NCBI GenBank assembly: GCA_024226315.1
Contig: JAAELT010000305.1
Span: 18,304 to 82,303 of the forward strand
DNA from: a bacterium
Lineage (GTDB): Bacteria > Acidobacteriota > Thermoanaerobaculia > Multivoradales > J023
Direction of reading: 5' to 3'
Length of the DNA: 64,000 nucleotides
Made by a program: the position numbers and the translations under genes. This document shows positions 17,277 to 49,753 of this stretch, piece by piece (position 1 is the stretch's first letter; each line of letters opens with the position of its first letter). The notes beneath the pieces are model-generated. The model saw only the letters and a program-made list of their open reading frames with translations. It had not been told where the DNA came from and searched no databases.

Positions 17277-17314
17277 GGCCTGACTCCCAAGGGTCTATTC
17301 GAAAGGTTTTGATT

Positions 17315-19183
17315 CTATCTGTCTTCGCCGACCAAAGTCAGGGCACAGCCGAGATAGAAGTAGTGCTCCCCCTTCTCGCGCCAACGCGGCATTTCGCCGG
17401 TGGCGGTGCGAATCTCCATGCGGTAGACATAGATGTCGAGCACGCGCTCCCACGCCGCCCGGTCGCGGTCGTTGCGCACCATGGTCGGGCGCGGCACCTT
17501 CAACACGACCCGCGTAAGTTGGTCAGGACCGGCGACGATGCGCTCGCTCGCGCCCTCGATCTCGAACGTCACCTCGTTACCCGGGGCCTGGCTGCGCACG
17601 TCGAAGGTCAGCTCGGTAATCGGCTCGAGGCTCTGGATCCAGATCTCCGAGGGGCCGCCGGCGCCGATCCACAGCTCCTCGCCCTCAGGGCGCAGGTGGT
17701 CCTTGCGGCCATAGAAGTATATGTCGCCGCGGGCGGCTCCGAAGTAGCCCGGCAGCTCGCGCAGGGAGAGCTCGAGCGGAAAGGCCTGGAACGGATGGTT
17801 GCGGCCGTGGGCCTGGAGCGTCGGCGACGGCACCGCCAGGCCGTAGGGCGAGAACACCAGCGAGCCGATGAACAGGCCGCCGGCGGCGAAGCCCGGTGCC
17901 ACGATCCAGTCCGGGCGGATCCGCGTCACCAGGAAGAGAAACGCCGGATAGAGCATGAAGAAATAGCGGTTGCCCACGAAGCCGCCGCCGCCGTGCCAGT
18001 TGTGGTGCAGGAAGGTGAGGAAGAAGAGCGTAATCAAGGCGAGCGATCCGAGCACTGTCCAGCGCACGGCGCTGCGCCGGCCGTAGGCCAGGAACAGGCC
18101 GAGGGCGATCACCGCGAACGGGTGGTACGGGACCAGGCCGACGTGGCGCCCGAAGAGGAAATACACGAAGTCCTCGCGCAGCTCCGGCAGGCTGACCTGG
18201 GGGACCCCGAAGATCCACCACCAGCCCGCGGTCTCCTTGCCCAGCTCCGCCTCGGCCGCGGCTACCGGCGTTCCCGCCGGCGTCGGCTCCTTCGGCTCCA
18301 CCGGCATGACGTGCGGCGTGTGCACGTTGTAGCCCTGGCGGTCGATGCCGAGATACGACGTCGGGTGGCCGGTCAGGACCTGGCCGATGCCGGCGAAGAT
18401 CCCCACGGTGACCGCCGCCGCGGCCAGCCACAGCAGGAGCTGTCGCCAGCACCGGTGGCGCACCAGCCGAAAGCAGACGGGCAGCCCGATCGCCGCCAGC
18501 ATCGGCTTGTTGTACACGCCCACCGCCAGCGCCGAGGCCGACGCCACGATGGCCACGCGATCCGTCGTCAGCCACGCTGGCAGCCGGGACCACAGGGCGC
18601 GCGTCGTGCCGAAGGCGCGCGGGTCGCGCGACGGGTCGCGCGACGGCTCGAAGGCGTGCAGGCCGAAGAACAGGCAGGCCGCCGTGGCGAACATGTTGAG
18701 CATCTCGGGCTGCAGCCAGTAGACGTAGCGGTAGGTCGTGCTCATCAGAAAGAAGCCCGAGGCGAAGAGCGCCGCCAGCCAATCGGCGTTGTAGCGCCGC
18801 AGGTAGAACGTCGACATCCAGATCATCGCCACCAGCAGCAACGTGTTGAACACCACCAGGCCGTTGGCCTTCCACAACGCGGCGAACGGCGCCGCCAGCA
18901 TGGAGTAGGCGTAGGGCTTGCCGTAGTAGACCGTGTGCCAGCCGTCGTCGGTCGACAGGATGAGGTTCTGGATCGGCGCGTAGGGGAACTCTTCGTAGAG
19001 ACGCGCCAGGTCCTCGGGCTCGCAGCGCAGGTCGCCGTCCCTCGCCAGGCTGAGCGCCGCCAGGTAGTAGGCCGGCTCGTCGGCCTTGAGGGTCGCGGGC
19101 ATGCCCGGCTTGCGATGGGTCAGCGGCAGGATCAGGAGCGCCAGCGACAGGCAGGCGAGGGCCAGGGTGACGCCGCGGCTCAT
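17315..19183 (-). CDS. Polytopic membrane protein, GT-C-fold glycosyltransferase (PMT/ArnT-like) with C-terminal soluble beta-rich domain
   Basis: Signal/TM start and more than 10 predicted TM helices across ~470 aa, then a soluble C-terminal region. Stop overlaps the upstream nucleotidyltransferase gene. Confidence 0.5.
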   Translation of the reverse strand: MSRGVTLALACLSLALLILPLTHRKPGMPATLKADEPAYYLAALSLARDGDLRCEPEDLARLYEEFPYAPIQNLILSTDDGWHTVYYGKPYAYSMLAAPFAALWKANGLVVFNTLLLVAMIWMSTFYLRRYNADWLAALFASGFFLMSTTYRYVYWLQPEMLNMFATAACLFFGLHAFEPSRDPSRDPRAFGTTRALWSRLPAWLTTDRVAIVASASALAVGVYNKPMLAAIGLPVCFRLVRHRCWRQLLLWLAAAAVTVGIFAGIGQVLTGHPTSYLGIDRQGYNVHTPHVMPVEPKEPTPAGTPVAAAEAELGKETAGWWWIFGVPQVSLPELREDFVYFLFGRHVGLVPYHPFAVIALGLFLAYGRRSAVRWTVLGSLALITLFFLTFLHHNWHGGGGFVGNRYFFMLYPAFLFLVTRIRPDWIVAPGFAAGGLFIGSLVFSPYGLAVPSPTLQAHGRNHPFQAFPLELSLRELPGYFGAARGDIYFYGRKDHLRPEGEELWIGAGGPSEIWIQSLEPITELTFDVRSQAPGNEVTFEIEGASERIVAGPDQLTRVVLKVPRPTMVRNDRDRAAWERVLDIYVYRMEIRTATGEMPRWREKGEHYFYLGCALTLVGEDR

Positions 19184-19977
19184 CGATCGAGCTCCCGTGC
19201 CGCGAAGCGGGCGGTGGCCCGCCGCAGATCTTCGGGCGTGCCGACGTCGAGGAAGGATCCCTCCGGGAAGCGCACCGCCGCCACCGCCAGACGATCGTCG
19301 ATCGCGGCCTGGATCACGTCACCGACATAGATCTCTTGCCCCTCCTCGCTGATCGCCGCGCCCACGTAATCGTGCAGGTAGCGGCTGAACCGCGGGCCCC
19401 AGACCGCGATCGACCAGGTGAACCGCAGGCCGGTATCGCGCTGCTTGATGACGATGCGCCTTACCCGGTCCGCCTCGTCGAGCTCGACCATGTCGGCCTT
19501 CCACGACTGATCGGTGGGAAACGCGCCGAGCACCACCTCCGCGCCACCGCGCGCGCGCTCGGCGAGCAGCGCGGCGTAGGCGTCGCCCGGCTGGAAGAGG
19601 ATGTCGGGGAAGCCGAGCGCCACCGTCGACTCGGCAATGAACGGATAGGCCCGATCGAGCGTCTCCGGCACGCTCGCCGTCGGCTCGAGCGCAAGATAGG
19701 CGAGCGGCAGCCCGTGGTCCGCGCCGCTGCCCAGGAGCGCCGGAATGTCCCACTTGCCCTGCCGCAGCAGGACGAAGGCGCGCCCCACCCCCGAGCTCGC
19801 GAAGCTCTCGAGCAAGTAACTGCACACCGCCCGGGGGCGCGGCTCGCCGTCTTCCCCGGTGCTGAAACCGAGCGGCAGGATCTCCTTGCTGCAGGGCAAT
19901 GGGCCCAGACGGTCGGCCCGCCCCGCCGCCGGGATCAGACCGACCACGTCGCTGGTGCTGTGATGACTTTGACCCAC
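19180..19977 (-). CDS. Sugar-phosphate nucleotidyltransferase family protein
   Basis: G-x-G-x-R motif GLIPAAGRADRLGPLPCSKE typical of the NTP_transferase fold. Translationally coupled to the downstream GT-C gene. Confidence 0.6.
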   Translation of the reverse strand: MGQSHHSTSDVVGLIPAAGRADRLGPLPCSKEILPLGFSTGEDGEPRPRAVCSYLLESFASSGVGRAFVLLRQGKWDIPALLGSGADHGLPLAYLALEPTASVPETLDRAYPFIAESTVALGFPDILFQPGDAYAALLAERARGGAEVVLGAFPTDQSWKADMVELDEADRVRRIVIKQRDTGLRFTWSIAVWGPRFSRYLHDYVGAAISEEGQEIYVGDVIQAAIDDRLAVAAVRFPEGSFLDVGTPEDLRRATARFAARELDR

Positions 19978-20885: not shown

Positions 20886-21941
20886 TTACAGGGCCTGGTA
20901 GCGGTCGATCTGTGCCTCGGTGAGCTGCCTCATGTCTTCACCGTCGCCGTAGGCGCGGTACCACTCGACGACCCAGTCGAGGGTGTCGTGCAATTCCAGG
21001 CGCGCCTTCCAGCCCAACCGTCCCTCGGCCTTGGCCGGATCGAGGCGCAGGAGATGGTGCTCGTGGGGATGGGGGCCGGGGTCGAGCTCGACCTCGCCGC
21101 TCTCGCCCCAGAGCTCCTGGATCCGTTCGACCATGGCGCCCACGGACAGGGGGTCCTCGTCCGGCGGGCCGAAGTTCCAGGCCTCGCTGAAGCGCTCACC
21201 TTCGCGCCACAGGTGCTCGGCGAGGGTCAGGTAGCCGCCGATCGGGTCGAGCACGTGCTGCCAGGGGCGCACCGACTGGGGGTAGCGGATGTAGAGCGGC
21301 CGGCGGTCGAGGAAGGAGCGCATGATGTCGGGCACCAGGCGGTCGCGGCCCCAGTCGCCGCCGCCGATGACGTTGCCGGCACGGGCCGTGGCCACCGCCA
21401 CCGGCGGCTCGGCGGCGGCGAAGAACGAATCCCGGTAGGCGCGGGTCACCAGCTCGGCGCAGCCCTTGCTGCTCGAATAGGGATCGCGCCCGCCCAGCGC
21501 GTCGTCCTCGCGGTAGCCGCGCTCCAGCTCGAGGTTGTCGTAGCTCTTGTCGCTGGTGACCACCACCACCGACCGGGCGCTGGGCTCGAGCCGGATCGCC
21601 TCGAGCAGGTTGACGGTGCCCATCACGTTGCTCGAATAGGTCTCGATCGGGTCTTCGTAGCTGGCCCGGACGATCGCCTGCGCCGCCAGGTGCAGCACCA
21701 CCTCGGGCCGGTGCCGATCGATGACCACGCGCAGATGGTCGAGGTCTCGCAGGTCGCCTTCGATCGATGTCATGCCGTCGGCCACGGCGGCGATCTCGAA
21801 CAGACTCGGCTCGGTGGGCGGCGGCAACGCGTAGCCAACCAGCCGGGCGCCGGCCCGCTGCAGCCACAGCGCCAGCCAGCTGCCTTTGAAGCCGGTGTGC
21901 CCGGTCAGAAGGACCTTCTTGTCGCGCCAGAAAGAGCTCAT
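20886..21941 (-). CDS. rfbG: CDP-glucose 4,6-dehydratase
   Basis: MSSFWRDKKVLLTGHTGFKGSW...YSSSKGCAEL (SDR, extended). Convergent with rfbF, with zero intergenic gap. Confidence 0.85.
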   Translation of the reverse strand: MSSFWRDKKVLLTGHTGFKGSWLALWLQRAGARLVGYALPPPTEPSLFEIAAVADGMTSIEGDLRDLDHLRVVIDRHRPEVVLHLAAQAIVRASYEDPIETYSSNVMGTVNLLEAIRLEPSARSVVVVTSDKSYDNLELERGYREDDALGGRDPYSSSKGCAELVTRAYRDSFFAAAEPPVAVATARAGNVIGGGDWGRDRLVPDIMRSFLDRRPLYIRYPQSVRPWQHVLDPIGGYLTLAEHLWREGERFSEAWNFGPPDEDPLSVGAMVERIQELWGESGEVELDPGPHPHEHHLLRLDPAKAEGRLGWKARLELHDTLDWVVEWYRAYGDGEDMRQLTEAQIDRYQAL

Positions 21942-21954
21942 ATAGCAAAGGTAG

Positions 21955-21982
21955 CAGATCGTCCGAGGATTCGGACGATCTG
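21955..21982. promoter_or_regulatory. Perfect 11-bp-arm inverted repeat CAGATCGTCCG-N6-CGGACGATCTG in the rfbG upstream region, with a second partial copy at 22045..22066 (84 bp away); candidate operator
   Basis: Palindrome read directly from the sequence; it sits 14 bp upstream of the rfbG start codon. Confidence 0.35.
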
Positions 21983-22095
21983 ATAGGCCGGTGGGATGGG
22001 CCAAGAAGTCGAACGCCGAAGGCTTCGAGTTCTTGGGGCGCTAGCAGATCGTCCGCGGATCGGACAGCCCGGCCTGGCTGGCGACCGGGAGACCT

Positions 22096-22451
22096 CGGAT
22101 TCAGGGTGAATCGGACTCTCCGGAAAAGCAGAGACCTCGGATTCAGGGTGAATCGTAACCTCCGGCAAATCAGGAGGGTGCGATTCACGCTGAATCGCAA
22201 CCTCCGGCAAATCAGGAAGGCGCGATTCACACTGAATCGTGACTACCAAAGGTAACCGAGGTTGCGATTCACGCTGAATCGCGACCCTCCTTTCGTAACC
22301 GATGGTGCGATTCACGCTGAATCGCGCCTGCGTCGCGTAACCGAGGTTACGATTCACGCTGAATCGTGCCTTCGACGCGTAACCGAAGTTGCGATTCACG
22401 CTGAATCGCGACCACCACACGTAACCGGAGTTGCGATTCACGCTGAATCGC
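22096..22451. repeat. Tandem array of 9 units with 42-43 bp period; each unit has a 19-bp palindromic core GCGATTCACGCTGAATCGC plus a ~23-bp partly conserved, partly variable spacer; two unit subfamilies (units 1-3 vs 4-9)
   Basis: Unit starts at 22096, 22138, 22180, 22222, 22264, 22307, 22349, 22391 and 22433. 8-bp arms GCGATTCA/TGAATCGC. Spacers share ...cgtaaccgaggtt with only a ~10-11 bp hypervariable core. Confidence 0.8.
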
Positions 22452-22769
22452 GACTCCGGCGTGATTTCGTTGGGTGAGTCGAGGAAGACGATCGAGTAGC
22501 CTGAGGTTCAGTCACCTGGCGTCGCCGTTCTGGCTCTCTCCGGGAACCGGACCGACCAGATAGAACAGCATAGTGTCGGAAACGGGCGAAACACGGATCG
22601 TGGCAATCGAGCCGACCGTGAGTTCGCGTCAGAGGAGGAGGTGCGAGATGCAGGTCAGAACCGGTGTGAATGCTGGGTATGGACCCTCGGTTGAGCCCGC
22701 AGGCTGAGTCCGGCGCCCGTGAGGGTGCGGCCGTTATGGCCGTGCCCTCACAAGGTCGACTAGAATGAA

Positions 22770-23937
22770 GTGAACAGATTGATTGAACAGGAGGAGGGAC
22801 CCTTTTTGCCGCACAACACCGAGTACGCCCAGCGGCTACTTCGCGAGCTGGACCTACCGGGTAATGCAGAGCAGATCCTGGAGAATCCCAAGTACGCGGA
22901 TCCTGGGTTCGCCGCTGCCTTCTACGAGCACTGCGAAGAGGTGCTCTTCCATTCTCCCGAGGACGCCCTGAAGCTCGCCAAAGTTGCACTGCGGCTTGCG
23001 CACTCTCTGCCAGAAGGCACGGGGCCAGAGGGCAAAAGAAAGCACCTCGAGCTGTTCGTCAAAGCGTGCTGGATCGTGGGGAGCGCCTATCGAAAGTTCG
23101 GCCGGACGAACGAGGCGGAGGGACCGTACCGAAAGGCGCTGGGTATCGCAGGCATCTCGGATGCCATCAAGGCTGCGCTTTATCTGAGGCTTGCGATCTT
23201 GCGGGTGTCACAACAGCGGTACGAGGACGCCTTGAAACTGATCGATCAGGCGGAGAGGATCTACCGATCCGAGAAGGACAGCAAGGGTTTGGGGCATGCA
23301 TTCGCCACGCGAGGGTACACCTACAACGAATCCGGTCGGTTCGCGGAGGCGATCTCACAATTCACCCGGGCGCTGTCGGCGATTGATCCACACCTGGATC
23401 CAGAAAGCGGACGCTTCCACTACTCCGCAACGCACAACGTGGGCTTTGCGATCTCTCAGTGTCGAAGCCCCGAAGCCATCGGCGCTGCGCAGATTCACAT
23501 TCGAGAAGCCCGGAGACTCCTCGGCGATCGGCGACGAAGTGTCCCGAGGTACAAGCTCTATTGGTATCGAAGGGAAAGCCCTGATCAAGCTCGGATCAAC
23601 GCAGTTGGGCGAACGTCGTTTACTCCGCGCACTCAAGGGACTCCTCATCCTCCGCGCGATCTTCGAATCTGCTCTTGTGTGTCTTGACCTTTCGGTCCTG
23701 TTGCGCGACGAGGAGCGTTGGAACGAGCTTGAAGAGGTCGCCGGAGAAACCTTCCGTCGGTTCGAGGAGCTTTCGGCCGACTCGGAGACAATCGCGGCGC
23801 TGTCTCTCTGGATGGAAGCTGTGAAAGCGCGCGAACTTGGGGATCAGCTCATCTCAGACGTCAGAGCCCAGCTCTCTGTGCGGATGCGCCGCCAGCCTCC
23901 CCCCGGCACTGTTCGACGTCGTTGGAAGCGGCGCTGA
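22770..23937 (+). pseudogene. Frameshifted paralog of the helical-repeat protein 26684..27817 (two ORFs 22770..23687 and 23296..23937, joined by a +1 frameshift near 23571-23578)
   Basis: Upstream ORF aligns with the paralog through ...RSVPRYKLYW. The downstream ORF (other frame) aligns from IEG... to the Arg-rich C-terminus (LSADSETIAALSLWMEAVKARELGDQLISDVRAQL vs LSADTESIAVLSLWMDAVRAQKLEDQVIADVRQKL). An extra T in tattggTatcgaaggg explains the shift. Confidence 0.6.
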
Positions 23938-24111
23938 AGCCCCCACCTCGTCGGAGATGAGGGCCGGGGCGCCCTACCAGTCGAGATCCCGGATCTTCTC
24001 CACGTGCTCCCCGGCACCGATCCCCGGAGATACCGCTCCCGGATCTGCTCCGGGGATCGCCAAAATGGGGCAGGACATGGTACCGTAACGTATCCAAAGA
24101 CGGAGGCAGCT

Positions 24112-24408
24112 ATGACCCAATTGACCATCAGCCAAGACATTCGCCCCATCTCTGATCTCAAGGCGAGGGGGAGCGAGATCGTCACCCAGGCGGCGAACAC
24201 GGGTCGCCCTGTCGTTCTGACCCGTCACGGCCGAAGCGTGGCCGTGGTATTGGCCGTCGACGAGTATGAACGTCTTCAGCAGGCGGCGGAACGGGGTGCT
24301 CTGGTGGAGGCCCTTCGGGAAGGGGAGCGGGATGTGGAAGCCGGCCGCGTTCTGACCCACGAGGAGATGCGGGCCAAGTGGCTCGCCGGAGAATCCGAGG
24401 ACGGATGA
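24112..24408 (+). CDS. yefM: Phd/YefM-family antitoxin
   Basis: MTQLTISQDIRPISDLKARGSEIVTQAANTGRPVVLTRHGRSVAVVLAVDEYERL. cGGAGG SD upstream. Confidence 0.8.
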   Translation: MTQLTISQDIRPISDLKARGSEIVTQAANTGRPVVLTRHGRSVAVVLAVDEYERLQQAAERGALVEALREGERDVEAGRVLTHEEMRAKWLAGESEDG

Positions 24409-24409
24409 C

Positions 24410-24712
24410 GTGGAGGTCGTCTGGTCGCGGGCAGCCGATCGAGACCTGGCTCGGATCTACTCCTACCTGGAACCGAGGAGTCTCCGGGCGGTTCGCGGCC
24501 TTCTGCGGCGTCTATTCAAGACGATAGATCTGTTGGCTGAGATGCCCCGGATGGGGACGGTCGCCGATCTCGGACTGGAGAGGGAATACCGACAGCAGGT
24601 GGTCGAGCACTACAAGATCTTCTACTACGTCGAGGAAGAGCGCCTCGTCATCGTGCGACTCTGGGACACCCGCCAAGACCCCACGAAGTTCTTCGTCCCC
24701 CTTACACCTTGA
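24410..24712 (+). CDS. parE: ParE/RelE-family toxin
   Basis: GTG start 2 nt after the yefM stop. VVWSRAADRDLARIYSYL...EMPRMGTV...YRQQVVEHYKIFYYVEEERLVIVRLWDTRQDP is typical ParE. Confidence 0.75.
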   Translation: MEVVWSRAADRDLARIYSYLEPRSLRAVRGLLRRLFKTIDLLAEMPRMGTVADLGLEREYRQQVVEHYKIFYYVEEERLVIVRLWDTRQDPTKFFVPLTP

Positions 24713-24715
24713 GCA

Positions 24716-24853
24716 TCCGGCCTGCAACTCGCCCAGGGTGACCGCGGATAGGTGAAGCTCGTCGTTGTCGATGCCCTCGAGCCAGGCGATCACGGCTCCG
24801 TGAGGGCGTGGACGCCTGAGCTCCGAGATGACGTTCGTGTCGAGCAGATACAA
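24716..24853 (-). pseudogene. VapC (PIN-domain toxin) N-terminal fragment; remainder displaced by or overlapping the convergent parE
   Basis: MYLLDTNVISELRRPRPHGAVIAWLEGIDNDELHLSAVTLGELQAG is a canonical PIN N-terminus (~46 aa). The rest of the 113-aa ORF is antisense to parE and lacks the distal PIN acidic residues. Confidence 0.5.
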
Positions 24854-24857
24854 GAGC

Positions 24858-25145
24858 CTACTCGAAGACCTCCGGCGACCGGCGGCGCCAGCGCCGCCGC
24901 GAAGGGACCGGGATTTCGGCGCGGGGAGAATCGGCGAGCAGCAGCTCTTTCAGCGTCGGTCCGGCGGCTCTTCGCAGGCGGCGCCAATCCTCCACCGGTA
25001 CCAGGACCGCGGCCTCGACGCCCCGGCGGGTCACGATCTGCGGGCCTTCGCGGAGGCTGGCCTCCAACAATCGGCTGAAGTGCGTTTTCGCATCGTGGAC
25101 CGGCCACCGCTTCGGGCTCGTTTCTCCGGCCATGAAGTCCTCCAA
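24858..25145 (-). CDS. Phd/YefM-type (VapB-like) antitoxin
   Basis: WPVHDAKTHFSRLLEASLREGPQIVTRRGVEAAVLVPVEDWRRL; directly upstream of the vapC fragment. Confidence 0.65.
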   Translation of the reverse strand: MEDFMAGETSPKRWPVHDAKTHFSRLLEASLREGPQIVTRRGVEAAVLVPVEDWRRLRRAAGPTLKELLLADSPRAEIPVPSRRRWRRRSPEVFE

Positions 25146-25251
25146 AGGTCCGGCTGGCGAGTACTGGCGGTTCGGTCCAGCTCGATTACCTCTCCGCCGA
25201 TACGGACAAGGCTTCCAGAAACCGACGAAGCCTCACGCATTCGGCAGCCTA

Positions 25252-25758
25252 TCATGACGCCGGGGTGACCGAGGTGGCGGGGTGACCGAGGGGGGTGACC
25301 GAGGTGGCTGGCACCGCGGACAGCAGCGCCTTGGCCGAAGCGACTGGATCTCCGTCGACGGAAGCCAGCCCCAGGGCTTCGTCGACAAGACCTACGCTCT
25401 CTTCTTCACGGTCACGGAGCGCAGTGTACCGAGCGATCCGAAGCAGGACGGAGGCCCGTTCTTCCTCAACGTTTCTTAACAGCTCAAGAGCGGCCTCCTC
25501 GGAGCCAGCGGCGAAGAGCGCCTCGACTGCGGCATTCAGGGCCTCGGGGTCTGCTGTCTGCGTTGCCATGTCGGTAACGCGGACGACCAGTTCGGCTCGC
25601 GCCTGTGGGTCTGGGGTCAGCTTTGCGCCGGGGCTGCAAGCGGCAAGAATTGGGATGATGAGCAGTCCGACCCATCTGATTTCATTGACGCTACAGTTGC
25701 GGCCTCCAGATCCATCGCGGTTACCGCGGATGAATTCGCGTTCCGAGATTGTATGCAT
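25252..25758 (-). CDS. Hypothetical lipoprotein
   Basis: Strong SD GGGAGGA 4 nt before the ATG; lipobox ILAAC. The 3' end lies inside a dispersed GC-rich repeat and encodes ...SAVPATSVTPLGHPATSVTPAS. Confidence 0.5.
   Translation of the reverse strand: MHTISEREFIRGNRDGSGGRNCSVNEIRWVGLLIIPILAACSPGAKLTPDPQARAELVVRVTDMATQTADPEALNAAVEALFAAGSEEAALELLRNVEEERASVLLRIARYTALRDREEESVGLVDEALGLASVDGDPVASAKALLSAVPATSVTPLGHPATSVTPAS
25262..25327. repeat. GC-rich dispersed repeat, locus A (GTGACCGAGGTGGC x3, ending GGGTGACCGAGGTGGCTGGCACCGCGGACAGCAGC); exact 35-bp match at 31824..31858
   Basis: Direct sequence comparison; both copies lie at the 3' ends of minus-strand genes. Confidence 0.75.
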
Positions 25759-26496
25759 GGGATCCTCCCTTCGCTAATTGATCCACGAGTTTGCCTTTCG
25801 GCAGCTCGGCGGTCTTGGAGTCCTTCGTGGCGGCCAGCGTCGCGGAGGAAGCGAGGACCCGTGGCTTTGCGGCACCGGCTTTTGCCGGCTGTGCCTTTTC
25901 GAGGCGCTCGGGTGTCGTTGTTATCGAGACAGCACGAACCTCATTACTAGAGATCATGCTGTCTTCTACATAAGTAGTGACGCCTAACCGCCAGTTATCT
26001 CACCTACATCTAAGAAAAATCCACGAGATCGACTGGGGCTAGAAGCCGGGCGGGCGTCGCAAGACCCGAGCGGCTTCGTGATCGCACCCCCATCAGTCTG
26101 GAGAGGGCGGCGCCACTTAAGGTGCCGGCCGTCTCGGCAAACAGAGTAGCACACCGACCCGATCGACCAGCGGTCACACGCCGAACCGAGCTGATCCCAG
26201 TCCGCGAGCTACCGCGGACACCCTCTGCGAACGGCTTCCGAGGCGCAGTCCGTGTCTCAATGGCGCTAATGAGCGCGCCTTGGGGCTTCTTGGGCGCACC
26301 GGGTCCGCAGCTCTCTATGGAGCGGAGCGGTAGCAGCAAAATCGTTCTGGGTACTTTCTGGTCTGGCTCGGCGAGCGCCTCTTCAACAGCTACGACGGCG
26401 CCCGCGCCGGCCCCGCGCGGCTGCAAGGCAGCCCAACGTCGCTCGGCACGTGAGGTCTCGGCGGAGGAAAGCAACCTGGTGGGAACTCCACGCCAC

Positions 26497-26527
26497 ACTC
26501 CCCTGCCCGAAGGCGGGCCGCCGCCTC
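26497..26527. repeat. 31-bp GC-rich near-palindromic dispersed repeat ACTCCCCTGCCCGAAGGCGGGCCGCCGCCTC; second exact copy at 32716..32746
   Basis: Direct comparison; contains the GGCGG/CCGCC hairpin. Confidence 0.7.
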
Positions 26528-26683
26528 ACGGTACGCTTCGACGAACAGCCGATACGCCTGCTTCAACTGCTTGCGCACCGCCTTCGTCGCGGCGTGAACT
26601 GCCGGCGCGGGCGACTTCTTCGAGCGGGCTACGAAGCGGGTGGCACCTGGGGAGCACCTGGGGAGCACCTGGGGAGCACCTGA

Positions 26684-27817
26684 TCAGCGCCGCCTGTAGC
26701 TGCCCCGTGCGCCTGGCAGTGGCTGGCGGCGCATCCGTCTTTCGAGCTTCTGCCTGACGTCCGCGATGACCTGATCTTCGAGCTTCTGCGCTCGTACGGC
26801 ATCCATCCACAGCGACAGGACCGCGATCGATTCGGTATCAGCTGAGAGCAGCCGAAACCGACCGAAAGTATCGGCCGCAAGCTCCTTCAGATCGCCCCAG
26901 CGCTCCTGCCGACAGAGAACCTCAGACAGGCTCAGTCCAACCAGAGCCAGCTCGAACGGCGCTCCCACGTCGAGGAAGCCTTCCCTGGCTCGCCAGAAGA
27001 GCCGCTCACCGTGCCGCTCGAGGCAGACCTTGACGTAGATCATCCCCTCGATCCAGGTGAGCTTGTGCTTGGGCAAGCTGCGCCGGTGGTTGCGCAGTCT
27101 CCGCTTCGCCTCGCGGATCCAGCGTAGGGCGGATTTCACTGCTCCATCATCGTCGGTCTTCGTGAACGCCAGCGCGAGACAGTGAATCGCGGAATGGTAG
27201 GTCCGGGTGTTCTTGTTCTTGGTCAACTGCAATGCTTCGCCGAAGTGCAGGATGGCCTCGGCAAACTGCGAGGATTGGCTGAAGGCGATCCCCTGTATGA
27301 CGAGGGCCTCTCCGAGGTATTCGTCATGTCGCTGCGTTCGGTAGGTCTTGATTGCTCCGCGGCACAGTTCGAAGGCTTCATCGAACTTCCTTTGCGTGAT
27401 CCGAAGCACCGCCAAGCGATGATGGAGGTTCGATTCCTCAAGGGTTGGAACATCCTCCCGTTCGCAGATCTGCAAGGCAGTTTGGAACGCTGCTTCTGCC
27501 TCGTCGAGCGTTCCGGCACCTCGAAGAGCACCTCCGTACACCGCGTTCGAGCGGACGCGTAACTCTCGGTGGATACGCTGCCCTTCTGATCCGCTGCGCT
27601 CCGGTACCAGCTCGGACAGTCTGGGCGCGAGAACCGCGAGCTTCAGGCCCTTCTCCGGATGATGATAAAGAACATCGTCGCAATGGCCGAGGTAGAGCCA
27701 GAGAAAAGTCTCATCCCAGTAACGAGGCTGCTCAAGCAGAGTGCCAACGTCGACCGGCAGCTCTCGGAGGAGCTTCTGGGCATACTTCTTCGAATGTGGC
27801 AACGACTCCGACTCCAA
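26684..27817 (-). CDS. Uncharacterized alpha-helical repeat (TPR-like) protein with Arg-rich C-terminal tail (RRMRRQPLPGARGSYRRR)
   Basis: Intact 377-aa ORF; paralog of the frameshifted gene at 22770..23937. Confidence 0.65.
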   Translation of the reverse strand: MESESLPHSKKYAQKLLRELPVDVGTLLEQPRYWDETFLWLYLGHCDDVLYHHPEKGLKLAVLAPRLSELVPERSGSEGQRIHRELRVRSNAVYGGALRGAGTLDEAEAAFQTALQICEREDVPTLEESNLHHRLAVLRITQRKFDEAFELCRGAIKTYRTQRHDEYLGEALVIQGIAFSQSSQFAEAILHFGEALQLTKNKNTRTYHSAIHCLALAFTKTDDDGAVKSALRWIREAKRRLRNHRRSLPKHKLTWIEGMIYVKVCLERHGERLFWRAREGFLDVGAPFELALVGLSLSEVLCRQERWGDLKELAADTFGRFRLLSADTESIAVLSLWMDAVRAQKLEDQVIADVRQKLERRMRRQPLPGARGSYRRR

Positions 27818-28273
27818 GTGTTCTGGCCAGAGAATAGCTCATTTAGGGGCAGATGGTGAAGGGGCGCGGTGAACGGGCCGCGCCCCTTACGATCAGCCGT
27901 CTCAGCCGACAGGCGGGATATTCGCGCCGACTCCTGCATTGACGCCAGTACTGATGCGCATGCTCCGTCCTCCATTCAACCGAGCTTCGCGGGTGGCGGG
28001 ATTGCCCCTCCTTCGTCTCGGTTCCCATGAGGACGATAGCTGACCGAACGGTACGAAAAGGCGTCAATAGCCCGGTTCCCAGGTGACGAAAAAGCCTACC
28101 GCTCGGTCGGTAGTTACACATTTAGCCGCACCTTTACTGAATAGAAACCATTGCCGGTTCGATCTCGACGCAAAACCTCTGAAATGAGATCACATTCCGC
28201 CCTGACGAGAACTTTGTCTGCGTGGTAGATGGGAACGGCGCTCCGGAACACGTTTTCGCTGCTAGCCTGACTC

Positions 28274-28765
28274 TTGCTGATGGAGGAGGAGACGCCTAGC
28301 GTGACGAGAGCCGAGCCGAGCGGGTCACCATTGCCGGCGGTCGTCGCCATCCTGGAGCTCATCGCGTCCGAGCACCCTCCACTACTCGACTTCCAGCTCG
28401 ATACGCTTCTCCACAGCACTACCAGATTCGTCGTGCACGAATTTGCCTCGGCCTTCGTCGTCCCACTCAAGCAGGTAGGGCAGACCATCCACAAGGCGTG
28501 CCTCGATCTGGACACGCTAGAAAGAAGACGGGCCGGCTGGAGGGACCCGGCTCTCATCCTCCAGACGCCTAACATCGTCGCGTTGCTGCACGTCTGTCGA
28601 GCCCGGGCCGGGCGGATCGCCGATCGCTACCGCCGGCGAAAGCTCGAGGTGATCGAGAGGCGGCTCCGGGCGGCTCAGGAGCTGGCGCGGTCTCGGGCCT
28701 GGATCGAGGAGTTCATCGGCCCGCCAGTCCGGGACAGAGCCGTCACTGCCAGGCCAGGTGACTGA
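28274..28765 (+). CDS. Hypothetical protein
   Basis: 163-aa ORF with reasonable codon usage, divergent from the helical-repeat gene across a lower-GC intergenic region. Confidence 0.4.
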   Translation: MLMEEETPSVTRAEPSGSPLPAVVAILELIASEHPPLLDFQLDTLLHSTTRFVVHEFASAFVVPLKQVGQTIHKACLDLDTLERRRAGWRDPALILQTPNIVALLHVCRARAGRIADRYRRRKLEVIERRLRAAQELARSRAWIEEFIGPPVRDRAVTARPGD

Positions 28766-29248
28766 CTGTTGGGCAGGGGGTGGCGTAGGCCTCGAGCGGT
28801 TCGCCGGGAGCGCCCAGAATGCCGGCGGCATGGTACCGTCGCACCGGCCATGGAAAAAAAGTTTCCCGCAAAGTGCAAGATTTCAGAGCCCGTTGGTGTC
28901 TATATAAGTAGAGGGTCACGAAAAAGTGCCTGGGTAGATGGCGTCCACGCCGTCACCAGGGACCGCATGGCGGCGGCCCGGGGTCCGGCCTACCGGAGTC
29001 CGGCTCTTTGGGTCCGGTCTCCCGAGGGGCCGGCCTACCGGGCCGGCCTTCTGGCACCGCCGCTCTGGATCCTCACCGCGTTCGGCGGGCTCGCACCGAT
29101 GGCGAGCCGCTCGTACGCCGACTGTCACGGCCCCGATCCGTGACGTGTGCCGTGCCGGCTGCCTGCACGGCTCTGACCGATTCCGAGTCCGGGGAACGCG
29201 ACCTCCGCCCCTTCCGGGGGGCGTTCGTCCGCCCTGTTCGAGGACCCA

Positions 29249-29290
29249 ACCCGCCGCGTGCCCCCCCCCGGGGTGCCGGCGGGTTTTTTC
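29249..29290 (+). terminator. Imperfect GC hairpin followed by T6, ending ~25 nt upstream of the sigma-factor start codon; candidate attenuator or terminator of a leader/ncRNA
   Basis: cccgccgcgtgcccccccccggggtgccggcgggtttttt. An AT-rich stretch with a tatata element lies at ~28845-28925, upstream. Confidence 0.45.
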
Positions 29291-29315
29291 GTGGAGACCG
29301 AAGAGAAAGGAGAAA

Positions 29316-30636
29316 CATGGAGAACGAATCGACGGACTGGACGCAGTGGGAACCGACTGCCGAAGATCTCCCGGAGCTCGATGCCGCAACGGTGGCCGCG
29401 GTCCGTGAGCTTCAGGGAGGGGAGGTCGCCGAGAGCACCCGCCACCTCTTCGCGACCTTCGAGCCGCAGCTCGCCGCCTACTTCCGGCGCAAAGGCTGTC
29501 AGGACGACGACGCCAACGACCTCACCCAGACCGTCTTCATCCAGATACTGGACCAGATCGAGACCCTGAAGGACCCGACGCGCTTCCATTTCTGGCTCTT
29601 CAAGACCGCCGAGCACCATCTCTTCAACTTCGGGCGCGACTCGGCCCGCGACCGCGAGGGGCTCGAGGGCTTCGCGGACAAAGCGCGCAAGGACAGCGAG
29701 TCGGGCACCTTCTGGGTGCGGGGCACCTTCGAGCCGAGCCCGGAGGCGAGGCTGACGGTAAGCGAGAGGGTGGGTCGGCGGCGCGAAGTGCTGCGCAAGC
29801 TGCTCAAGGCCACCCGGCTCGCGCCGCGGACGCGAAGGTCCCTCCTGCTGCGGCTGCGCGGCGCCAGCTACCAGGAGATCGCCCGCGAGCTCGAGTGCTC
29901 CGCCGGCACCGTCGGATCGCACATCAGCCGCGCCAGCACCGCACTGATCAGGAACCTCGAGAGGATCGATCTCGACGCCGTGGCTCTCGACGACGACGAC
30001 GCCGACCTCGTGGCCGCGCTGACCCCGGAGCTCCTCACCTTCAAACGGGAGGCCCAGGAGGCGGATCCGACCTACGCCTCGGCCGGCATCCTCGAGGCCG
30101 CCAGCGCCGACTTCGAGGGGATGCAGGAGAGCGACGATGAAGCGCTGGATCTGCTCGACAAGACGGACGGGGAGGAGGAGACCGAGAAGGGGGAGGCCGG
30201 GAAGGTCGAGCGCGTGGTCGACAGCCCGGCGGAGATCGCCGCCGTGGCCCGGCAGGACCGCAGGCGGTGGCGGCCTCGCCGGCGGACGACCCGGACGATC
30301 CCGCCGGCGGGAAAGAGAGACGGAGGGCCGGACCTGGGGCGCCTCTCGAGAGACGACCTGGGCTACCCCCTGACCCTCCTCGAGGAAGCCGCCGCCCGCT
30401 GCGGCGAGCGCGGCGGGAGCCGCGACGGTCACGCCTTCGATCCTCTGGCGCTGAAAGCCAAGCTCGCCTGCGCCGGCTCGCTTCTCGCCCGTGGCCGGCG
30501 CTTCGCGGTCGCGCGGCGGGTCGGCGAGATCGTCCGGCTGGCGATCCTGCTGATCGGCCACGGACGGCGCGACGACGTCAGACGCAAGCTCGCGGAAGGC
30601 CGCGGCCTGCTCGAGGCCTACCTCGGGCGCAACTAA
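29316..30636 (+). CDS. ECF-type sigma-70 factor (regions 2 and 4) with ~40-aa N-terminal and ~200-aa C-terminal extensions
   Basis: Region 2: DANDLTQTVFIQILDQIETLKDPTRFHFWLFKTAEHHLFNF. Region 4: LLLRLRGASYQEIARELECSAGTVGSHISRASTALIRNL. AAGGAG SD 7 nt before ATG 29316. Confidence 0.75.
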
Positions 30637-30826
30637 ACAGTCCCCGAGCTCACGACTCCGACCCACCGCTTCCCGACGGGAAGCCGTGGAATACAACCCT
30701 CAACCAGGGCGCTACAGGCGGGCCACATGTGTCCGCCTGTTTCCGATATGCCCGCGTCCGGGACGCCGGATCGCGAGCACAAAACCAAACCGCCCGGAAA
30801 CCCCGGGCAAAGAAAGGAGCCATCAC

Positions 30827-31694
30827 CATGGCTAAATTGACTGTATCGATCACCGGCAAGGTCAGGTCCTGCCTGTTCTTGCTCGCGGCCCTCGGAGAAC
30901 AAGGGCCCAAGGTGACGCAACTCGTGCTGGACAAGCTCCAGCCGAGCCTGAAGCGAGGCGAAGAGCCTCCCCCGTTCCTGGCCCAGCTGCAAGCGCTGGG
31001 CCGACTGCTCCGAGCCGCGCTCGAGCTGATGATCGCACTCGACCGCAAGCTCTACGACGAGGACGAGCTGCGAGCGACCCTGTTCGCGGATCGCCAGGAA
31101 ATCGCCGGCAAGCTCGGACGCAAGGTCGGCGGCCTGCGCCGCATCGTCCTCGGCCACTACCCCGACGCCAAAGCGGAAAAACTCGGCCTCCAGGGCCGGA
31201 CCGAGCAGGAGCCGGTCGCACTGCTCCGGCAGTCCGAGCTGATCTGCCAGAAGCTGCGGCGTGAGGACCTGGAGAAGATGCTGGGAGATCCCTTGTTCGA
31301 TCTGCAGCTCGATCCGGAGCCCTACGTCCTTCAGGTCGATCCCGTTCTGCCGCGTCTGACCGAGGCCTACGAGGTCCACCAGCGGGCGCGGCGCCGGGTC
31401 GACAACCTGCTGGACGAGAAAAAGGAGGCGGTGACGTCCTACGACGTCGCCTTCCTGCGGGTGGCCCGCCAGTTCGAGGACCTCTGCCGTCTGGCAGGGA
31501 AGAACGAGCTGGCCGACAAGGTACGGCCGTCGCTCACCCACCCGGGTGAGACCGCCGAGAGGCCGGACGACAGTGAGGTTCTGGACTCGGCCGACGGCGT
31601 CGTCGCGGCCGACGTCGCCGGCGAGCCCGAGGCGCCTGTGTCCGAGGCCGAGCCGCGGTCCGAGACGGCGCCCGAGCCGTCAGACGTCGGCTAG
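30827..31694 (+). CDS. Hypothetical protein (289 aa), downstream of the ECF sigma factor
   Basis: AAAGGAG SD; a clean ORF followed by a strong intrinsic terminator. Confidence 0.6.
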
Positions 31695-31702
31695 ATGCTA
31701 GC

Positions 31703-31742
31703 GGCGCCGGCGCAGCGACCACGCTGCGCCGGCGCCTTTTTC
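31703..31742 (+). terminator. Rho-independent terminator (15-bp GC stem, 4-nt loop, T5)
   Basis: ggcgccggcgcagcg-acca-cgctgcgccggcgcc-ttttt. Confidence 0.7.
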
Positions 31743-31868
31743 CTTCGTTCCTGATCCGCGGGAATGCCTGGCGAGGCAGGCGGGCTCGCCTTGCGGGTGA
31801 CCGAGGTGGCTGGCACCGCGGACGGGTGACCGAGGTGGCTGGCACCGCGGACAGCAGCACCTGTCGTC

Positions 31869-32582
31869 TCATCGTGCCAGGAAGTTCTTCGTCACCTCTT
31901 CGAGGGCGCGACCGGTCTCCTTATCGAGTCCTTTGAACGCGATGCCTGCTCGACACACTCCCTCCTCCGAAACCTCCCGGATCAGCTGGCGGTTGGCGAC
32001 CCGACCGGCCATCTGGAGCGACCGGTGACCGGCGCGCAGCTCCATGTCCAGGGTGGAACCGACGTCCAGAAGCAGCTTGGTCTCGATCAGCATGCCAGAG
32101 AAGCTGATCACCGAGACCACGAAGTCGTGGTACTCGCTGACCTTCGCCGGCCCCTCCAGGGTCACTTTGAAGCGTCCGTTGATGCGCTTCTCCGCGTCGA
32201 TCACCATGTGGTGCTGGAGGAAGGTGAGAACCTCCAGGGCCTTTTCCTCGAGCGCGCTCCGAAACTCCAAACCACTCTGGTAGACCGGAATGACTTCGCT
32301 GTTGGACCGCTCGGTGCGCACCAGGTGACTCCATCGAACGTCCGATTTGAGCTCCAGGCCCTCGTCGCCTTTCTGGAGAGTGATCTCGTACTCACTTCCG
32401 ATCTCCAGCGGCCTCTGGCACTCGACGGCGAGTCCGGTGAGGCTCATGTTGAAGACCTCGACCTCGAAGTGCAGCGGGAATCTCCCGCGTACGTCCCGAA
32501 CCTGGTAGCGAGGATGCTGCCGTCGGAGCTTGTAGCGAGGATGCCGCCGCCGTCCTGATCCCGACTTCGAGGGGTCGCTCAT
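31869..32582 (-). CDS. Tandem PilZ-domain protein (putative c-di-GMP receptor)
   Basis: RRRHPRYKLRRQHPRY...FNMSLTGLAVE, and a second PilZ-like half RINGRFKV...ISFSGMLIE. Confidence 0.7.
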   Translation of the reverse strand: MSDPSKSGSGRRRHPRYKLRRQHPRYQVRDVRGRFPLHFEVEVFNMSLTGLAVECQRPLEIGSEYEITLQKGDEGLELKSDVRWSHLVRTERSNSEVIPVYQSGLEFRSALEEKALEVLTFLQHHMVIDAEKRINGRFKVTLEGPAKVSEYHDFVVSVISFSGMLIETKLLLDVGSTLDMELRAGHRSLQMAGRVANRQLIREVSEEGVCRAGIAFKGLDKETGRALEEVTKNFLAR

Positions 32583-32896
32583 CGAACCAGGCTATCAGAA
32601 GGATCGCTTGCAGCTCGGGCTGGGGCAACAGGTCGGCCGGCCGGTCTGTCCAGCGCTCGAGATTCAGGATGCCGTGGGTCAGGATTCGTGCGCCCGGCAG
32701 CGGCTATCACGTCGTACTCCCCTGCCCGAAGGCGGGCCGCCGCCTCGGGGAGGTCGACAGTAGTTCTCATAAAAGCATCTTTATAGCTTGATGCGCGACG
32801 GTCAAGTCCCCGAGGCGGCCCCGCCTTGCGGGCTGCCAACCTTTGGGCTAGTCTCATTTCCGGCCCGCATCTCCCTCCTCGATTCGAACTCCGTCC

Positions 32897-33817
32897 ATGA
32901 CCGAACCCAGCGTCGCGGCCCTCGTTCTCAACTACAACGGCAAGGAGCTGACGCTCCAGACCGTCGAGAGCCTGCTGGCGATGACTTACCCGCGCTGCGA
33001 GGTCGTGGTGATCGACAACGCCTCCACCGACGGATCCCACGAGGCGGTGCAAGAAGCCTTTCCCGACGTCACCCAGGTCCGGGTCGAAGTCAACCAGGGG
33101 CCGGTGAGTGGTATGAACGCCGGCCTGCGATACGCGATCGAGCACGACTTCGACTACGCGCTGCTGCTCAACAACGACATCGAGGTCGACGCCGAAATGG
33201 TCACCGAGATGGTGGCGGTGGCCGAGCGTGACGAGACCATCGGCGTGGTCGGTCCCAAGGCCTACTACTTCTGGGACCGCGAGCGGATCTGGTCGGCCGG
33301 CGGCATCCTGCGCTTCAAGGAGTCGGTGACGCGCGAGCGCGGCGACGGTGAGCTCGACCGCGGGCAGTGGGACCGCGACGAGGAGGTCGACTACATCTGC
33401 GGCTGCGCCATGCTGGTGCGGCGGTCCGCGATCCTGGCCACCGGGCTGTGGGACCCGACCTACACCCTCGGCGTCGAGGACGCCGACTGGTGCGCGCGCA
33501 TGAAGCGGCAGGGGTTCCGCTGCTACTACGCCCACAAGGCCAGGCTGTGGCACAAGGTCGGGCAGTCGATCGGCGTCTACAAGCCGGGGCGCACGTTTCA
33601 CACCGGTCGCAACATGGCGATCTTCGTGCGCAAGTACGCCGGCCCCTGGCAGTGGCTGACCTTCGCGCTGTTCTATGCCGCGAGCATCCCCGTGGCCTTC
33701 TTGCGCGAGCTCCCCAAGGGCAACCAGATGGCGGCGGTCATGAAGCTCAAGGGCGTGCTGGCGGGCCTGAGGGTGCCGCTGGGCTCGCCGCCGCCGTTGC
33801 CCGGGAAGCCCGGCTAG
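32897..33817 (+). CDS. Family 2 glycosyltransferase
   Basis: ALVLNYNGKELTLQTVESL...VVIDNASTDGS...LLLNNDIEVD. Confidence 0.85.
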   Translation: MTEPSVAALVLNYNGKELTLQTVESLLAMTYPRCEVVVIDNASTDGSHEAVQEAFPDVTQVRVEVNQGPVSGMNAGLRYAIEHDFDYALLLNNDIEVDAEMVTEMVAVAERDETIGVVGPKAYYFWDRERIWSAGGILRFKESVTRERGDGELDRGQWDRDEEVDYICGCAMLVRRSAILATGLWDPTYTLGVEDADWCARMKRQGFRCYYAHKARLWHKVGQSIGVYKPGRTFHTGRNMAIFVRKYAGPWQWLTFALFYAASIPVAFLRELPKGNQMAAVMKLKGVLAGLRVPLGSPPPLPGKPG

Positions 33818-33945
33818 ACCATGCCGGACCTGTTTCGCCCTTACAGGGCGATCCTCTCGGGGCTCCCGCAACCCGGGGCTGCGCCCCGGGCTTTACGATT
33901 TCGCCCCTTCGGGGCGCAGACATGGCAGCCTGAAGAAGCTCTGCC

Positions 33946-45556: not shown

Positions 45557-45660
45557 GAGGGGGCACCGAGCTTACCAGCAGCCAGGTGGGGTTCAGGCTC
45601 GTGAGGTCGGCTGGGCGCTGAGGTTCCGAAACAACGACCAGCCTCGCTGCTACGACCGGC

Positions 45661-49460: not shown

Positions 49461-49753
49461 GCGCGGCGATCGGGTTTGTTCTTCGCCACCGCAGAGCAGG
49501 CCTCCGACGGAGATTTCCCGTCAGCCGAGTCTGCCGGCATCAGGGTGAGGTACGTGTCGAAACTGCCGATAGTCTACCGCCAATCCCGTGTTTGCTGTCA
49601 ACAGCGTAAGGAAAGCGAGGAATCCCCCACCGAGGCACCTGCGAGTGCAGCTGCTATGCTCTGTCCGACGCGGATTGGCGAGTCGAAGACTATGCCCGAG
49701 CATACCAGCGGCCAGGCTACCCGATGGCAGCTGACCTCAGCGTCGCGCCGACC

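Follow-up and report, generated by a model that had tools for sequence, protein, structure and literature searches.

The locus described here raises the question of whether ~11 kb of DNA, located between the rfbG gene and a GT2 glycosyltransferase gene (positions 21942-32896), entered a surface-glycan locus as a single mobile insertion. The segment lies in a stretch of 64,000 nucleotides (contig JAAELT010000305.1 of assembly GCA_024226315.1, from an Acidobacteriota bacterium), which is referred to as the window, has an overall GC content of ~67% and stems from a metagenome-assembled genome (MAG). In an initial annotation, the segment was regarded as mobile accessory DNA splitting the locus, given an inventory of genes, repeats and low-GC stretches, each item of which is present in the sequence. 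On balance, we favour a different arrangement: the 11 kb would be a composite, in which an islet of ~6.6 kb with a low GC content at third codon positions (GC3) adjoins ~4 kb of resident regulatory DNA, and not a single insertion. For the left two-thirds of the segment, the broader notion of accessory DNA in a variable spot beside a glycan cluster is supported.

Composition and gene order

The base composition of the segment is not uniform, as the GC profile falls at ~21.85 kb and returns at ~28.45 kb. The profile, GC3 and codon usage together restrict the atypical part to the region from 21.9 to ~28.5 kb (~6.6 kb). Genes at 22770-28765, from a TPR pseudogene to orf163, have GC3 values of 0.64-0.83, compared with 0.82-0.94 for core genes (about 0.9 in the flanks). 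Codon-usage fit, scored against the usage of the high-GC3 genes in the window and expressed as mean codon log-likelihood, ranges from -1.04 to -1.52 in these genes and from -0.67 to -1.06 in core genes. In the right 4 kb, the GC3 values of a sigma factor gene (0.90) and of an open reading frame (ORF) of 288 residues (0.86) are both in the core range, and that of a PilZ gene (0.80) is intermediate.

The low-GC tract is gene-poor and decayed, as it contains a frameshifted TPR gene, a truncated vapC gene and ~2 kb devoid of a coding signal. GC values at the three codon positions, plotted in six frames, revealed no coding periodicity in any frame at 21950-22760, 25960-26690 and 27830-28270, which account for these ~2 kb. 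The profile is flat throughout 25960-26683, a stretch that includes one of the repeats described below (B1) and 3.6 copies of an 11-bp unit (26643-26682, found by tandem-repeat search); the ORFs of this stretch had no family match in Pfam and NCBIfam scans. The candidate transposase remnant orf92 (26390-26668), considered for its C-terminal motif, was rejected, as it has neither a family match nor coding periodicity. At the right end of the tract, orf163 (163 residues; 28274-28765, plus strand) shows intermediate codon usage (GC3 0.79) and had no match in Pfam, NCBIfam and PADLOC scans.

Two toxin-antitoxin modules lie side by side in the tract. The yefM (24112-24408; PhdYeFM_antitox, 2.9e-17 in Pfam) and parE (24410-24712; ParE_toxin, 3.1e-15 in Pfam) genes, both on the plus strand, are separated by one base and form an intact type II pair, which includes a match to TIGR01552 in NCBIfam. 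On the minus strand, an intact vapB gene encoding a Phd/YefM-type antitoxin (24858-25145; Pfam) is accompanied by a truncated PIN toxin gene (vapC, ~24715-24853), which covers only positions 1-48 of the 120 of the PIN profile. The initial annotation placed yefM-parE inside vapBC. The genes were confirmed, and vapC is indeed truncated beside yefM-parE, but no C-terminal half of the PIN domain occurs in the minus-strand ORFs on the far (left) side of yefM, and insertion inside vapC is therefore not shown.

The supposed splitting of the locus was examined through the flanking genes. To the left, a gene for 2-oxoglutarate dehydrogenase E1 (OGDH) with a cyclic-nucleotide-binding domain (13944-17276, minus strand) is followed by a GT-C gene (17315-19183, minus strand; no Pfam match, a weak NCBIfam glycosyltransferase match, homologs named GT87, product 100% identical to the protein annotated GY719_18965), a nucleotidyltransferase-like gene of 265 codons, rfbF (TIGR02623, 420 bits vs a cut-off of 300) and rfbG (20886-21941; TIGR02622, 468 bits vs a cut-off of 278), the last two at the equivalog level. 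We add that rfbG is on the minus strand and convergent with rfbF, which places the rfbG promoter inside the flagged segment. To the right, the genes are, in order, GT2, Wzx, TylF, SDR epimerase, hexapeptide acetyltransferase, GT4, DUF4910, RmlC, SGNH, DUF5989, SxtJ and carbamoyltransferase.

Relatives were compared at the family level by means of GT-C homologs, in views extending within 10 kb. Protein identities for GT-C, OGDH and rfbF are 66%, 78% and 85% in one relative (L085) and 64%, 76% and 83% in another (L086/L087), and in both the genes after rfbF are unrelated to those of the window. In a third (L089), GT-C (71%) and OGDH (84%) are followed by a conserved 263-residue gene and then only by a weak NTP-transferase fragment. 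The conserved block of OGDH, GT-C and rfbF stops at rfbF in L085 and L086 and at the 263-residue gene in L089, and the gene order past the block differs in every relative examined. Neither rfbG, nor the flagged segment, nor the GT2/Wzx cluster was found within 10 kb of the block in these three relatives, and no empty site, with rfbG beside GT2, was found among them. The synteny break is at the rfbF-rfbG junction (20885/20886) and not at 21942. The left polysaccharide genes, except rfbG, accordingly read as core genes and not as half of a variable locus. Since the conserved block ends at rfbF, an earlier contiguity of rfbG and GT2, on which the idea of a split locus depends, cannot be shown. 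In the three relatives, the OGDH architecture, with the cyclic-nucleotide-binding domain inserted at residues ~155-236, is kept.

The rfbG gene itself looks horizontally mobile, since its best match in a scan of species-representative genomes is only 60% identical and its matches are spread over many phyla. Exact-protein look-ups of rfbG and GT2 returned zero matches; the annotated start codons probably differ. A functional link across the gap is plausible. The RmlC gene of the right cluster is an equivalog match (TIGR01221, 170.8 bits vs a cut-off of 155.75), and this cluster, which includes an SDR gene, lacks a nucleotidyltransferase; rfbF and rfbG, which make an RmlC-type substrate, could supply the 4-keto-6-deoxy sugar for RmlC. 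An Acido-Lenti-1 RNA motif (RF01687, 40.3 bits vs a gathering score of 37) is present at 33872-33916 (plus strand), in the 128-nt gap between GT2 and Wzx.

Close relatives are represented only by short contigs of metagenome assembly GCA_024449835.1. One of these (L088) matches the left flank at 16628-19437 with 99.6% identity. Another (L081), an independent sister-strain contig, is collinear with 30744-33193 at 95.9% nucleotide identity; the identity is mosaic, being 87-91% over the 5' half of the 288-residue ORF and 94-100% over most of the rest. A sister contig of 7,294 bp encodes a TPR protein identical at 371 of 372 residues (99.7%) to that of the window. Sister contigs carry the TPR gene and the collinear right block, and no presence/absence polymorphism was seen. 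The accessory-DNA interpretation holds for the 21.9-28.5 kb tract, which is atypical in GC3 and decaying; it is not supported for the segment as one 11-kb unit, as the sigma factor gene and the 288-residue ORF are native in codon usage and the right block is collinear in L081.

Signatures of mobility are scarce. No integrase, transposase or recombinase domain was detected in the segment ORFs scanned with Pfam, NCBIfam and PADLOC, and PADLOC returned nothing in the segment as a whole. No tRNA gene is located in the segment, the only one in the window being at 60059-60146. DNA matches to 72,556 plasmids and 50,697 phage records were absent, as were TPR homologs on plasmids. The att-like repeats expected at 21.9 and 32.9 kb were sought by comparing 21.7-22.1 kb with 32.55-33.0 kb in both direct and inverted orientation, and the best matches are at the level of shuffled sequences. 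The view of the segment as a mobile element thus finds no backing from integrase, transposase, tRNA or plasmid and phage searches. The low-GC tract is bracketed by an inverted repeat (22508-22545 and 28728-28765, 30 of 38 positions matching), the right copy of which corresponds to the last 38 nt of orf163. In a post hoc test, the score of this repeat was reached by 2 of 200 shuffles. These sequences were not retained as transposon ends, as they are imperfect, have no target-site duplication and in part overlap the TPR-leader paralogy, and they are kept as a lead only.

Genes linked to cyclic di-GMP and the right-hand block

One of the low-GC stretches described as non-coding, at 25.9 kb, includes a match to the cyclic di-GMP (c-di-GMP)-I (GEMM-I) riboswitch aptamer (25797-25905, minus strand; RF01051, 50.7 bits, E 5.7e-7). 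The match is above the gathering score (35) and full-length (model positions 1-87 of 87). It lies upstream of, and on the same strand as, a gene for a putative lipoprotein of 168 residues (25252-25758); the distance is 27 nt to a Shine-Dalgarno (SD) sequence, AAGGGAGGA, and 38 nt to the ATG (25758), which follows the SD sequence by 5 nt. The lipobox (LAAC) was recognized by eye, and the protein had zero family matches in Pfam and NCBIfam scans. By sequence, the 25.9 kb stretch is best described as a c-di-GMP-I riboswitch in the leader of the lipoprotein gene. The fold of minimum energy has the SD sequence base-paired to the 5' strand of helix P2 in the aptamer, and ligand binding is therefore predicted to free the SD sequence, i.e., c-di-GMP would turn the gene on.

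The element resembles members of the RF01051 class in its full-length match over the gathering score, its position in the leader of a gene for a putative lipoprotein and the possible SD-sequestering pairing. In contrast to them, it has a long insertion in helix P2, and the model of the GGC variant scores slightly higher (56 bits), albeit below its own gathering score of 59. A literature search on the GGC riboswitch variant yielded nothing useful.

A second gene connected with c-di-GMP is found in the right part of the segment. The tandem-PilZ protein (31869-32582, minus strand; Pfam PilZ, 8.4e-16, two PilZ stretches) features, in domain 1, the canonical RxxxR motif, which occurs twice (RRHPR/RQHPR), and NMSLTG, which fits NxSxxG; domain 2 carries RINGR but VISFSG. 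The doubling of the RxxxR motif (RRHPRYKL/RQHPRYQV) results from a 27-nt tandem duplication (32497-32550). On the basis of the RxxxR and [D/N]xSxxG motifs, the protein is a putative c-di-GMP receptor. Its gene is transcribed divergently from the GT2-Wzx operon, and its homologs are found either on short contigs or, at 45-47% identity, in unrelated contexts. A 63-codon ORF overlapping the PilZ start and repeat B2 was discarded, as its GC pattern at the three codon positions is non-coding.

Two pairs of GC-rich repeats connect the two genes. Repeat A1 (25263-25331), in the 3' end of the lipoprotein gene, consists of ~3 copies of a 17-nt unit, and A2 (31795-31862), just downstream of the PilZ stop codon, of two copies of a 29-nt unit; the pair is 88.6% identical over 70 nt. 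The copy number of A2 differs in L081, with indels of 16 and 3 nt (a length difference of 19 nt). Repeats B1 (26489-26527), in the non-coding stretch, and B2 (32708-32746), in the intergenic region common to the divergent PilZ and GT2 genes, are 92% identical over 39 nt, 31 of which match exactly. Both pairs are significant, and the initial annotation, which noted them at 25293/31824 and 26497/32716, was right about their existence; they are, however, near-exact and not exact. No RNA structure signal was detected in either repeat (z about 0). On the minus strand, the order is B1, riboswitch-lipoprotein gene, A1 and B2, PilZ gene, A2, with B upstream and A downstream of both genes. The repeats thus bracket the two c-di-GMP-linked genes as if these were exchangeable cassettes.

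The right-hand block also includes the ECF (extracytoplasmic function)-type sigma factor gene (29317-30636, plus strand), the product of which contains regions 2 and 4 at residues ~40-216 (Sigma70_r2 and r4_2 in Pfam; TIGR02937, 58.1 bits vs a cut-off of 42.9), followed by a C-terminal extension of ~220 residues. Its codon usage is native. As regards a cognate anti-sigma factor, the neighbouring orf163 and 288-residue ORF had no family matches in NCBIfam and Pfam scans. The 288-residue ORF (30828-31694, plus strand) has an SD sequence and an ATG start and is followed by a strong intrinsic terminator (31703-31736, plus strand; a 15-bp stem and a T-tract). The low identity to L081 (87-91%) spans 30744-31100 and points to local recombination or diversifying change in the 5' half of this ORF. 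A single-sequence AlphaFold2 (AF2) model of the protein was unusable (pLDDT 47) and was not considered. Upstream of the sigma gene, a long region rich in GC contains 4.3 copies of a 15-bp unit (CCGGGGTCCGGCCTA, 28978-29042).

TPR genes, palindromes and other low-GC3 islets

The paralogous helical-repeat genes of the initial annotation, one of them frameshifted, both match Pfam TPR_12. The intact copy (26684-27817, minus strand; annotated GY719_19010) encodes 377 residues. The pseudogene (22770-23937, plus strand) has one extra base near 23563, and its ORF pieces align in BLASTP with residues 2-255 (38% identity) and 256-377 (53% identity) of the intact protein; the two genes are old paralogs, inverted relative to each other. 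The family, the members of which are ~370 residues long, comprises 76 cluster representatives at E<=1e-30 and 519 at E<=1e-10, with homologs in related Acidobacteriota-like contigs. In other genomes, TPR homologs have GC3 values of 0.77-0.80 vs 0.85-0.92 in their neighbours. Homologs at 59-65% identity bear an N-terminal zf-HC2 anti-sigma domain; one such gene starts 20 bp after an ECF sigma gene. Another homolog lies among VapBC, NACHT, CHAT and M78 genes. No zf-HC2 or sigma remnant was found upstream of either TPR gene of the window. The AF2 model of the intact protein (pLDDT 87) is an all-helical TPR superhelix, with generic fold matches such as eukaryotic LGN (TM 0.42) and Rap proteins (TM 0.30-0.32), the latter being the sole bacterial proteins among the matches at E<=0.001.

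Both TPR genes are preceded by similar leaders. In the leader of the intact gene (27818-28071, minus strand), a structured 5' part is followed by an SD sequence, a micro-ORF of 19 codons (MRISTGVNAGVGANIPPVG, 27961-27902) and a GC-rich hairpin of 9 bp located 16 nt past the stop codon. The leader of the frameshifted gene (22538-22769, plus strand), as identified by alignment, has an SD sequence, a micro-ORF of 19 codons (MQVRTGVNAGYGPSVEPAG, 22648-22707) and a GC-rich hairpin. A third micro-ORF of the same length (MLIGTGIHAGSSPCIEPVG, 9822-9881 of contig L090) precedes a 68%-identical TPR homolog in another genome. All three leaders align and carry a GGAGGA SD sequence; the hairpin starts 12-16 nt, and the TPR gene 62-119 nt, after the micro-ORF stop. 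Among the three copies, codons T5, G6, A9, G10 and P17 vary at their third positions alone, and the consensus is M-x-[IV]-x-T-G-[VI]-[NH]-A-G-...-P-x-G. The low-GC stretch at 27.85-28.27 kb is thus a conserved TPR-gene leader. Both of the stretches initially described as non-coding and low in GC are present, but they prove to be cis-regulatory, one as a riboswitch and the other as a leader with a micro-ORF.

Short leader peptides control downstream genes by attenuation in pyrBI and tnaC, and peptide-sensing TPR receptors are known in the RNPP family (Rap/Phr). The TPR leaders share with the attenuators a short ORF, conserved and provided with an SD sequence of its own, a hairpin 12-16 nt past the stop codon and a downstream gene that could be regulated, and the TPR protein has the size and the predicted superhelical fold of Rap. 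In contrast to Rap/RNPP systems, the fold matches are weak, the micro-ORF peptide has no signal sequence and the instances are three only. With regard to zf-HC2 anti-sigma/ECF pairs, some TPR homologs carry zf-HC2 and an ECF-type sigma gene is located 1.5 kb from a TPR gene of the window, but both TPR copies of the window lack this domain. That the micro-ORF and hairpin control, or signal to, the Rap-sized TPR protein as an undescribed regulatory module, the TPR domain being the sensor of a zinc-finger anti-sigma factor in relatives, is put forward as a speculative and rather doubtful idea.

Two kinds of palindromes are found between rfbG and the TPR pseudogene. A palindrome with perfect 12-bp arms, CAGATCGTCCGA-GGAT-TCGGACGATCTG (21955-21982, read from the sequence), lies upstream of rfbG, at 14-41 nt from its start codon, and has a partial second copy ~90 bp further upstream (~22045-22068); it may be an operator or a 5' untranslated region hairpin. 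The tandem array at 22089-22460 consists of nine 42-bp units (Tandem Repeats Finder period 42), each with a 19-bp palindrome made of 8-bp arms and a CGC centre. Seven sites match the core GCGATTCACGCTGAATCGC with <=2 mismatches (chance expectation 0.03), and 2 further units are degenerate; within the window, the core is confined to the array. The units form two opposed sets, ~4 facing ~5 of opposite flank orientation around a dyad centre at ~22231, and the fold z-scores are -7 and -11. The 19-nt palindrome had no match in viral contigs. Its 12 single matches in JGI metagenomes were dismissed, as those inspected lie in unrelated sequence and reflect chance, not arrays; several of them fall in an apparent AIHAES motif of sigma-54 activators.

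The geometry of the array is one resembling the sopC locus of F, where SopB binds a 16-bp inverted repeat present in each of 12 direct 43-bp repeats (PMC3177203). The nine units of the array are of nearly the same length (42 bp) and are likewise centred on an inverted repeat. Unlike sopC, they are arranged in two opposed sets around a dyad, are chromosomal, directly upstream of rfbG, and have no sequence similarity to it. No sopA/sopB (parA/parB) gene was found among the neighbouring ORFs scanned with Pfam and NCBIfam.

Including the tract at 21.9-28.5 kb, the window has three low-GC3 islets. The second islet (45.7-49.5 kb; GC 0.54-0.57, GC3 0.67-0.72), between fpg and a VWA/FGE-sulfatase gene, encodes a 973-residue nSTAND1 NTPase, which has WD40 repeats, and, in an overlapping gene, a 296-residue SIR2_2 protein, which matches PADLOC SIR2 models of the ThsA/Dsr type. 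It is flanked by a 49-nt inverted repeat (45576-45624 and 49751-49799, 82%) and looks like an inserted defence gene pair. The third islet (58.1-59.7 kb, from 58065 on) includes a weak PIN_3 match, a UPF0175 gene and a 176-residue ORF, and directly adjoins tRNA-Ser(tga) (60059-60146), a more classical islet position than that of the flagged segment.

Origin and significance of the segment

In the arrangement that we favour, the islet at 21.9-28.5 kb would have been acquired from, or exchanged with, a lower-GC pool, plausibly related Acidobacteriota, the core genes of which have GC3 values of 0.70-0.86, a plausible donor range. Its parts are the palindromic array, the two inverted TPR units, each made of leader, 19-codon micro-ORF, hairpin and TPR gene, with one copy frameshifted, the yefM-parE pair, the broken vapBC module and the riboswitch-lipoprotein gene, in which c-di-GMP binding would free the ribosome-binding site. 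The islet, devoid of transfer machinery of its own, is decaying, and the toxin-antitoxin modules probably help to retain it. The region at ~28.8-32.9 kb would be a resident block made of the ECF-type sigma factor with its extension, the fast-evolving 288-residue ORF and the tandem-PilZ c-di-GMP receptor; a regulatory tie of PilZ or the sigma factor to the glycan operon may exist. The whole stretch sits just beyond the end of the conserved core block (OGDH, GT-C, rfbF).

Several observations weigh against this arrangement. The horizontal origin of the islet is suggested by composition alone, and no empty site was found among relatives. Given the near-identical TPR gene on a second contig, the islet is fixed in the population sampled and not visibly polymorphic. 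The source is a MAG, in which neither the 21.9 kb nor the 28.5 kb junction is independently confirmed. As orf163 and the PilZ gene are intermediate in GC3, the islet lacks a sharp boundary on its right. Finally, the c-di-GMP theme occurs in both halves and repeats A/B tie the lipoprotein gene to the PilZ gene, which argues that the halves are not independent.

In a rather unlikely alternative, the segment in its entirety would be a resident control region, responsive to c-di-GMP, of a surface-glycan or biofilm programme, and its low GC content would reflect regulatory DNA and weakly expressed genes and not foreign origin. The occurrence of riboswitch and PilZ protein together, the bracketing of both genes by repeats A/B in the same order and orientation, the TPR homologs that are anti-sigma fusions beside ECF sigma genes and the 99.7% conservation of the TPR protein in the sister contig fit this alternative. 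The coding GC3, however, drops by 0.1-0.25, which exceeds the usual effect of expression level in a genome of 67% GC; toxin-antitoxin modules do not count as regulatory parts, nor do a frameshifted gene and a truncated toxin, and PilZ homologs are found in unrelated contexts. We consider it unlikely that one ~11-kb mobile element (21942-32896) inserted into a once-contiguous glycan locus and parted rfbG from GT2. Such an event would account for the low GC content, toxin-antitoxin genes and pseudogenes in between, and for rfbF/rfbG equivalogs that could feed the RmlC equivalog of a cluster devoid of a nucleotidyltransferase. It is at odds with the split composition of the segment, in which sigma gene and 288-residue ORF are native and the PilZ gene intermediate, with the lack of mobility genes, tRNA and att-like edge repeats, with the relatives examined, in which rfbG is never beside GT2 and the conserved block stops at rfbF, and with the apparent mobility of rfbG itself.

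It is still less probable that the low-GC tract is what remains of a plasmid or conjugative element once integrated there, with the array as its sopC-like partition centromere and the toxin-antitoxin pairs as its addiction modules. The nine 42-bp units with inverted repeats fit the description of F sopC (PMC3177203), and two toxin-antitoxin modules are adjacent; yet the segment ORFs scanned include no parA/parB, rep, relaxase or integrase domain, the plasmid and phage collections gave no match and no plasmid carried a TPR homolog, and the units are in opposed sets, unlike sopC. An assembly or binning artefact, in which the low-GC tract was wrongly joined to the contig, is very improbable. The sequence comes from a MAG, the tandem array at 22.1-22.5 kb is of a kind that misleads assemblers and none of the independent contigs retrieved spans 21.9 or 28.5 kb. 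On the other side, the left flank and the right block have counterparts in independent contigs of another assembly (99.6% and 95.9% identity, respectively), the TPR gene is also present on an independent contig of 7.3 kb, and TPR homologs are known in related Acidobacteriota-like contigs.

The islet at 21.9-28.5 kb is comparable to small flexible-genome islets that carry toxin-antitoxin or defence genes beside variable surface-glycan clusters. It shares with them atypical composition, toxin-antitoxin modules, pseudogenes, a synteny breakpoint beside a Wzx-type glycan cluster and the presence of similar islets nearby, and differs from them in having no integrase, tRNA or direct repeats and in being interleaved with apparent resident regulators. 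The islet is best classified as an ordinary flexible-genome islet with curious parts, i.e., the riboswitch-controlled gene, the link between micro-ORF, TPR protein and anti-sigma factor, and the palindromic array. By itself, the presence of accessory DNA in a glycan locus is commonplace and would be of little weight. The apparent split of the locus corresponds to the edge of a conserved core block, and annotation-based calls of gene-cluster disruption need a synteny check.

If the micro-ORF module were real, it would act on ECF sigma control in Acidobacteriota, either as an attenuator that works through the nascent peptide or as a signalling pair of peptide and TPR protein; how micro-ORF, TPR protein and anti-sigma domain are connected can be cheaply checked across roughly 500 family members. 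The riboswitch, the leader with its micro-ORF and the PilZ protein together suggest that c-di-GMP controls surface components in this lineage of Acidobacteriota, which is uncultured and has been little studied.

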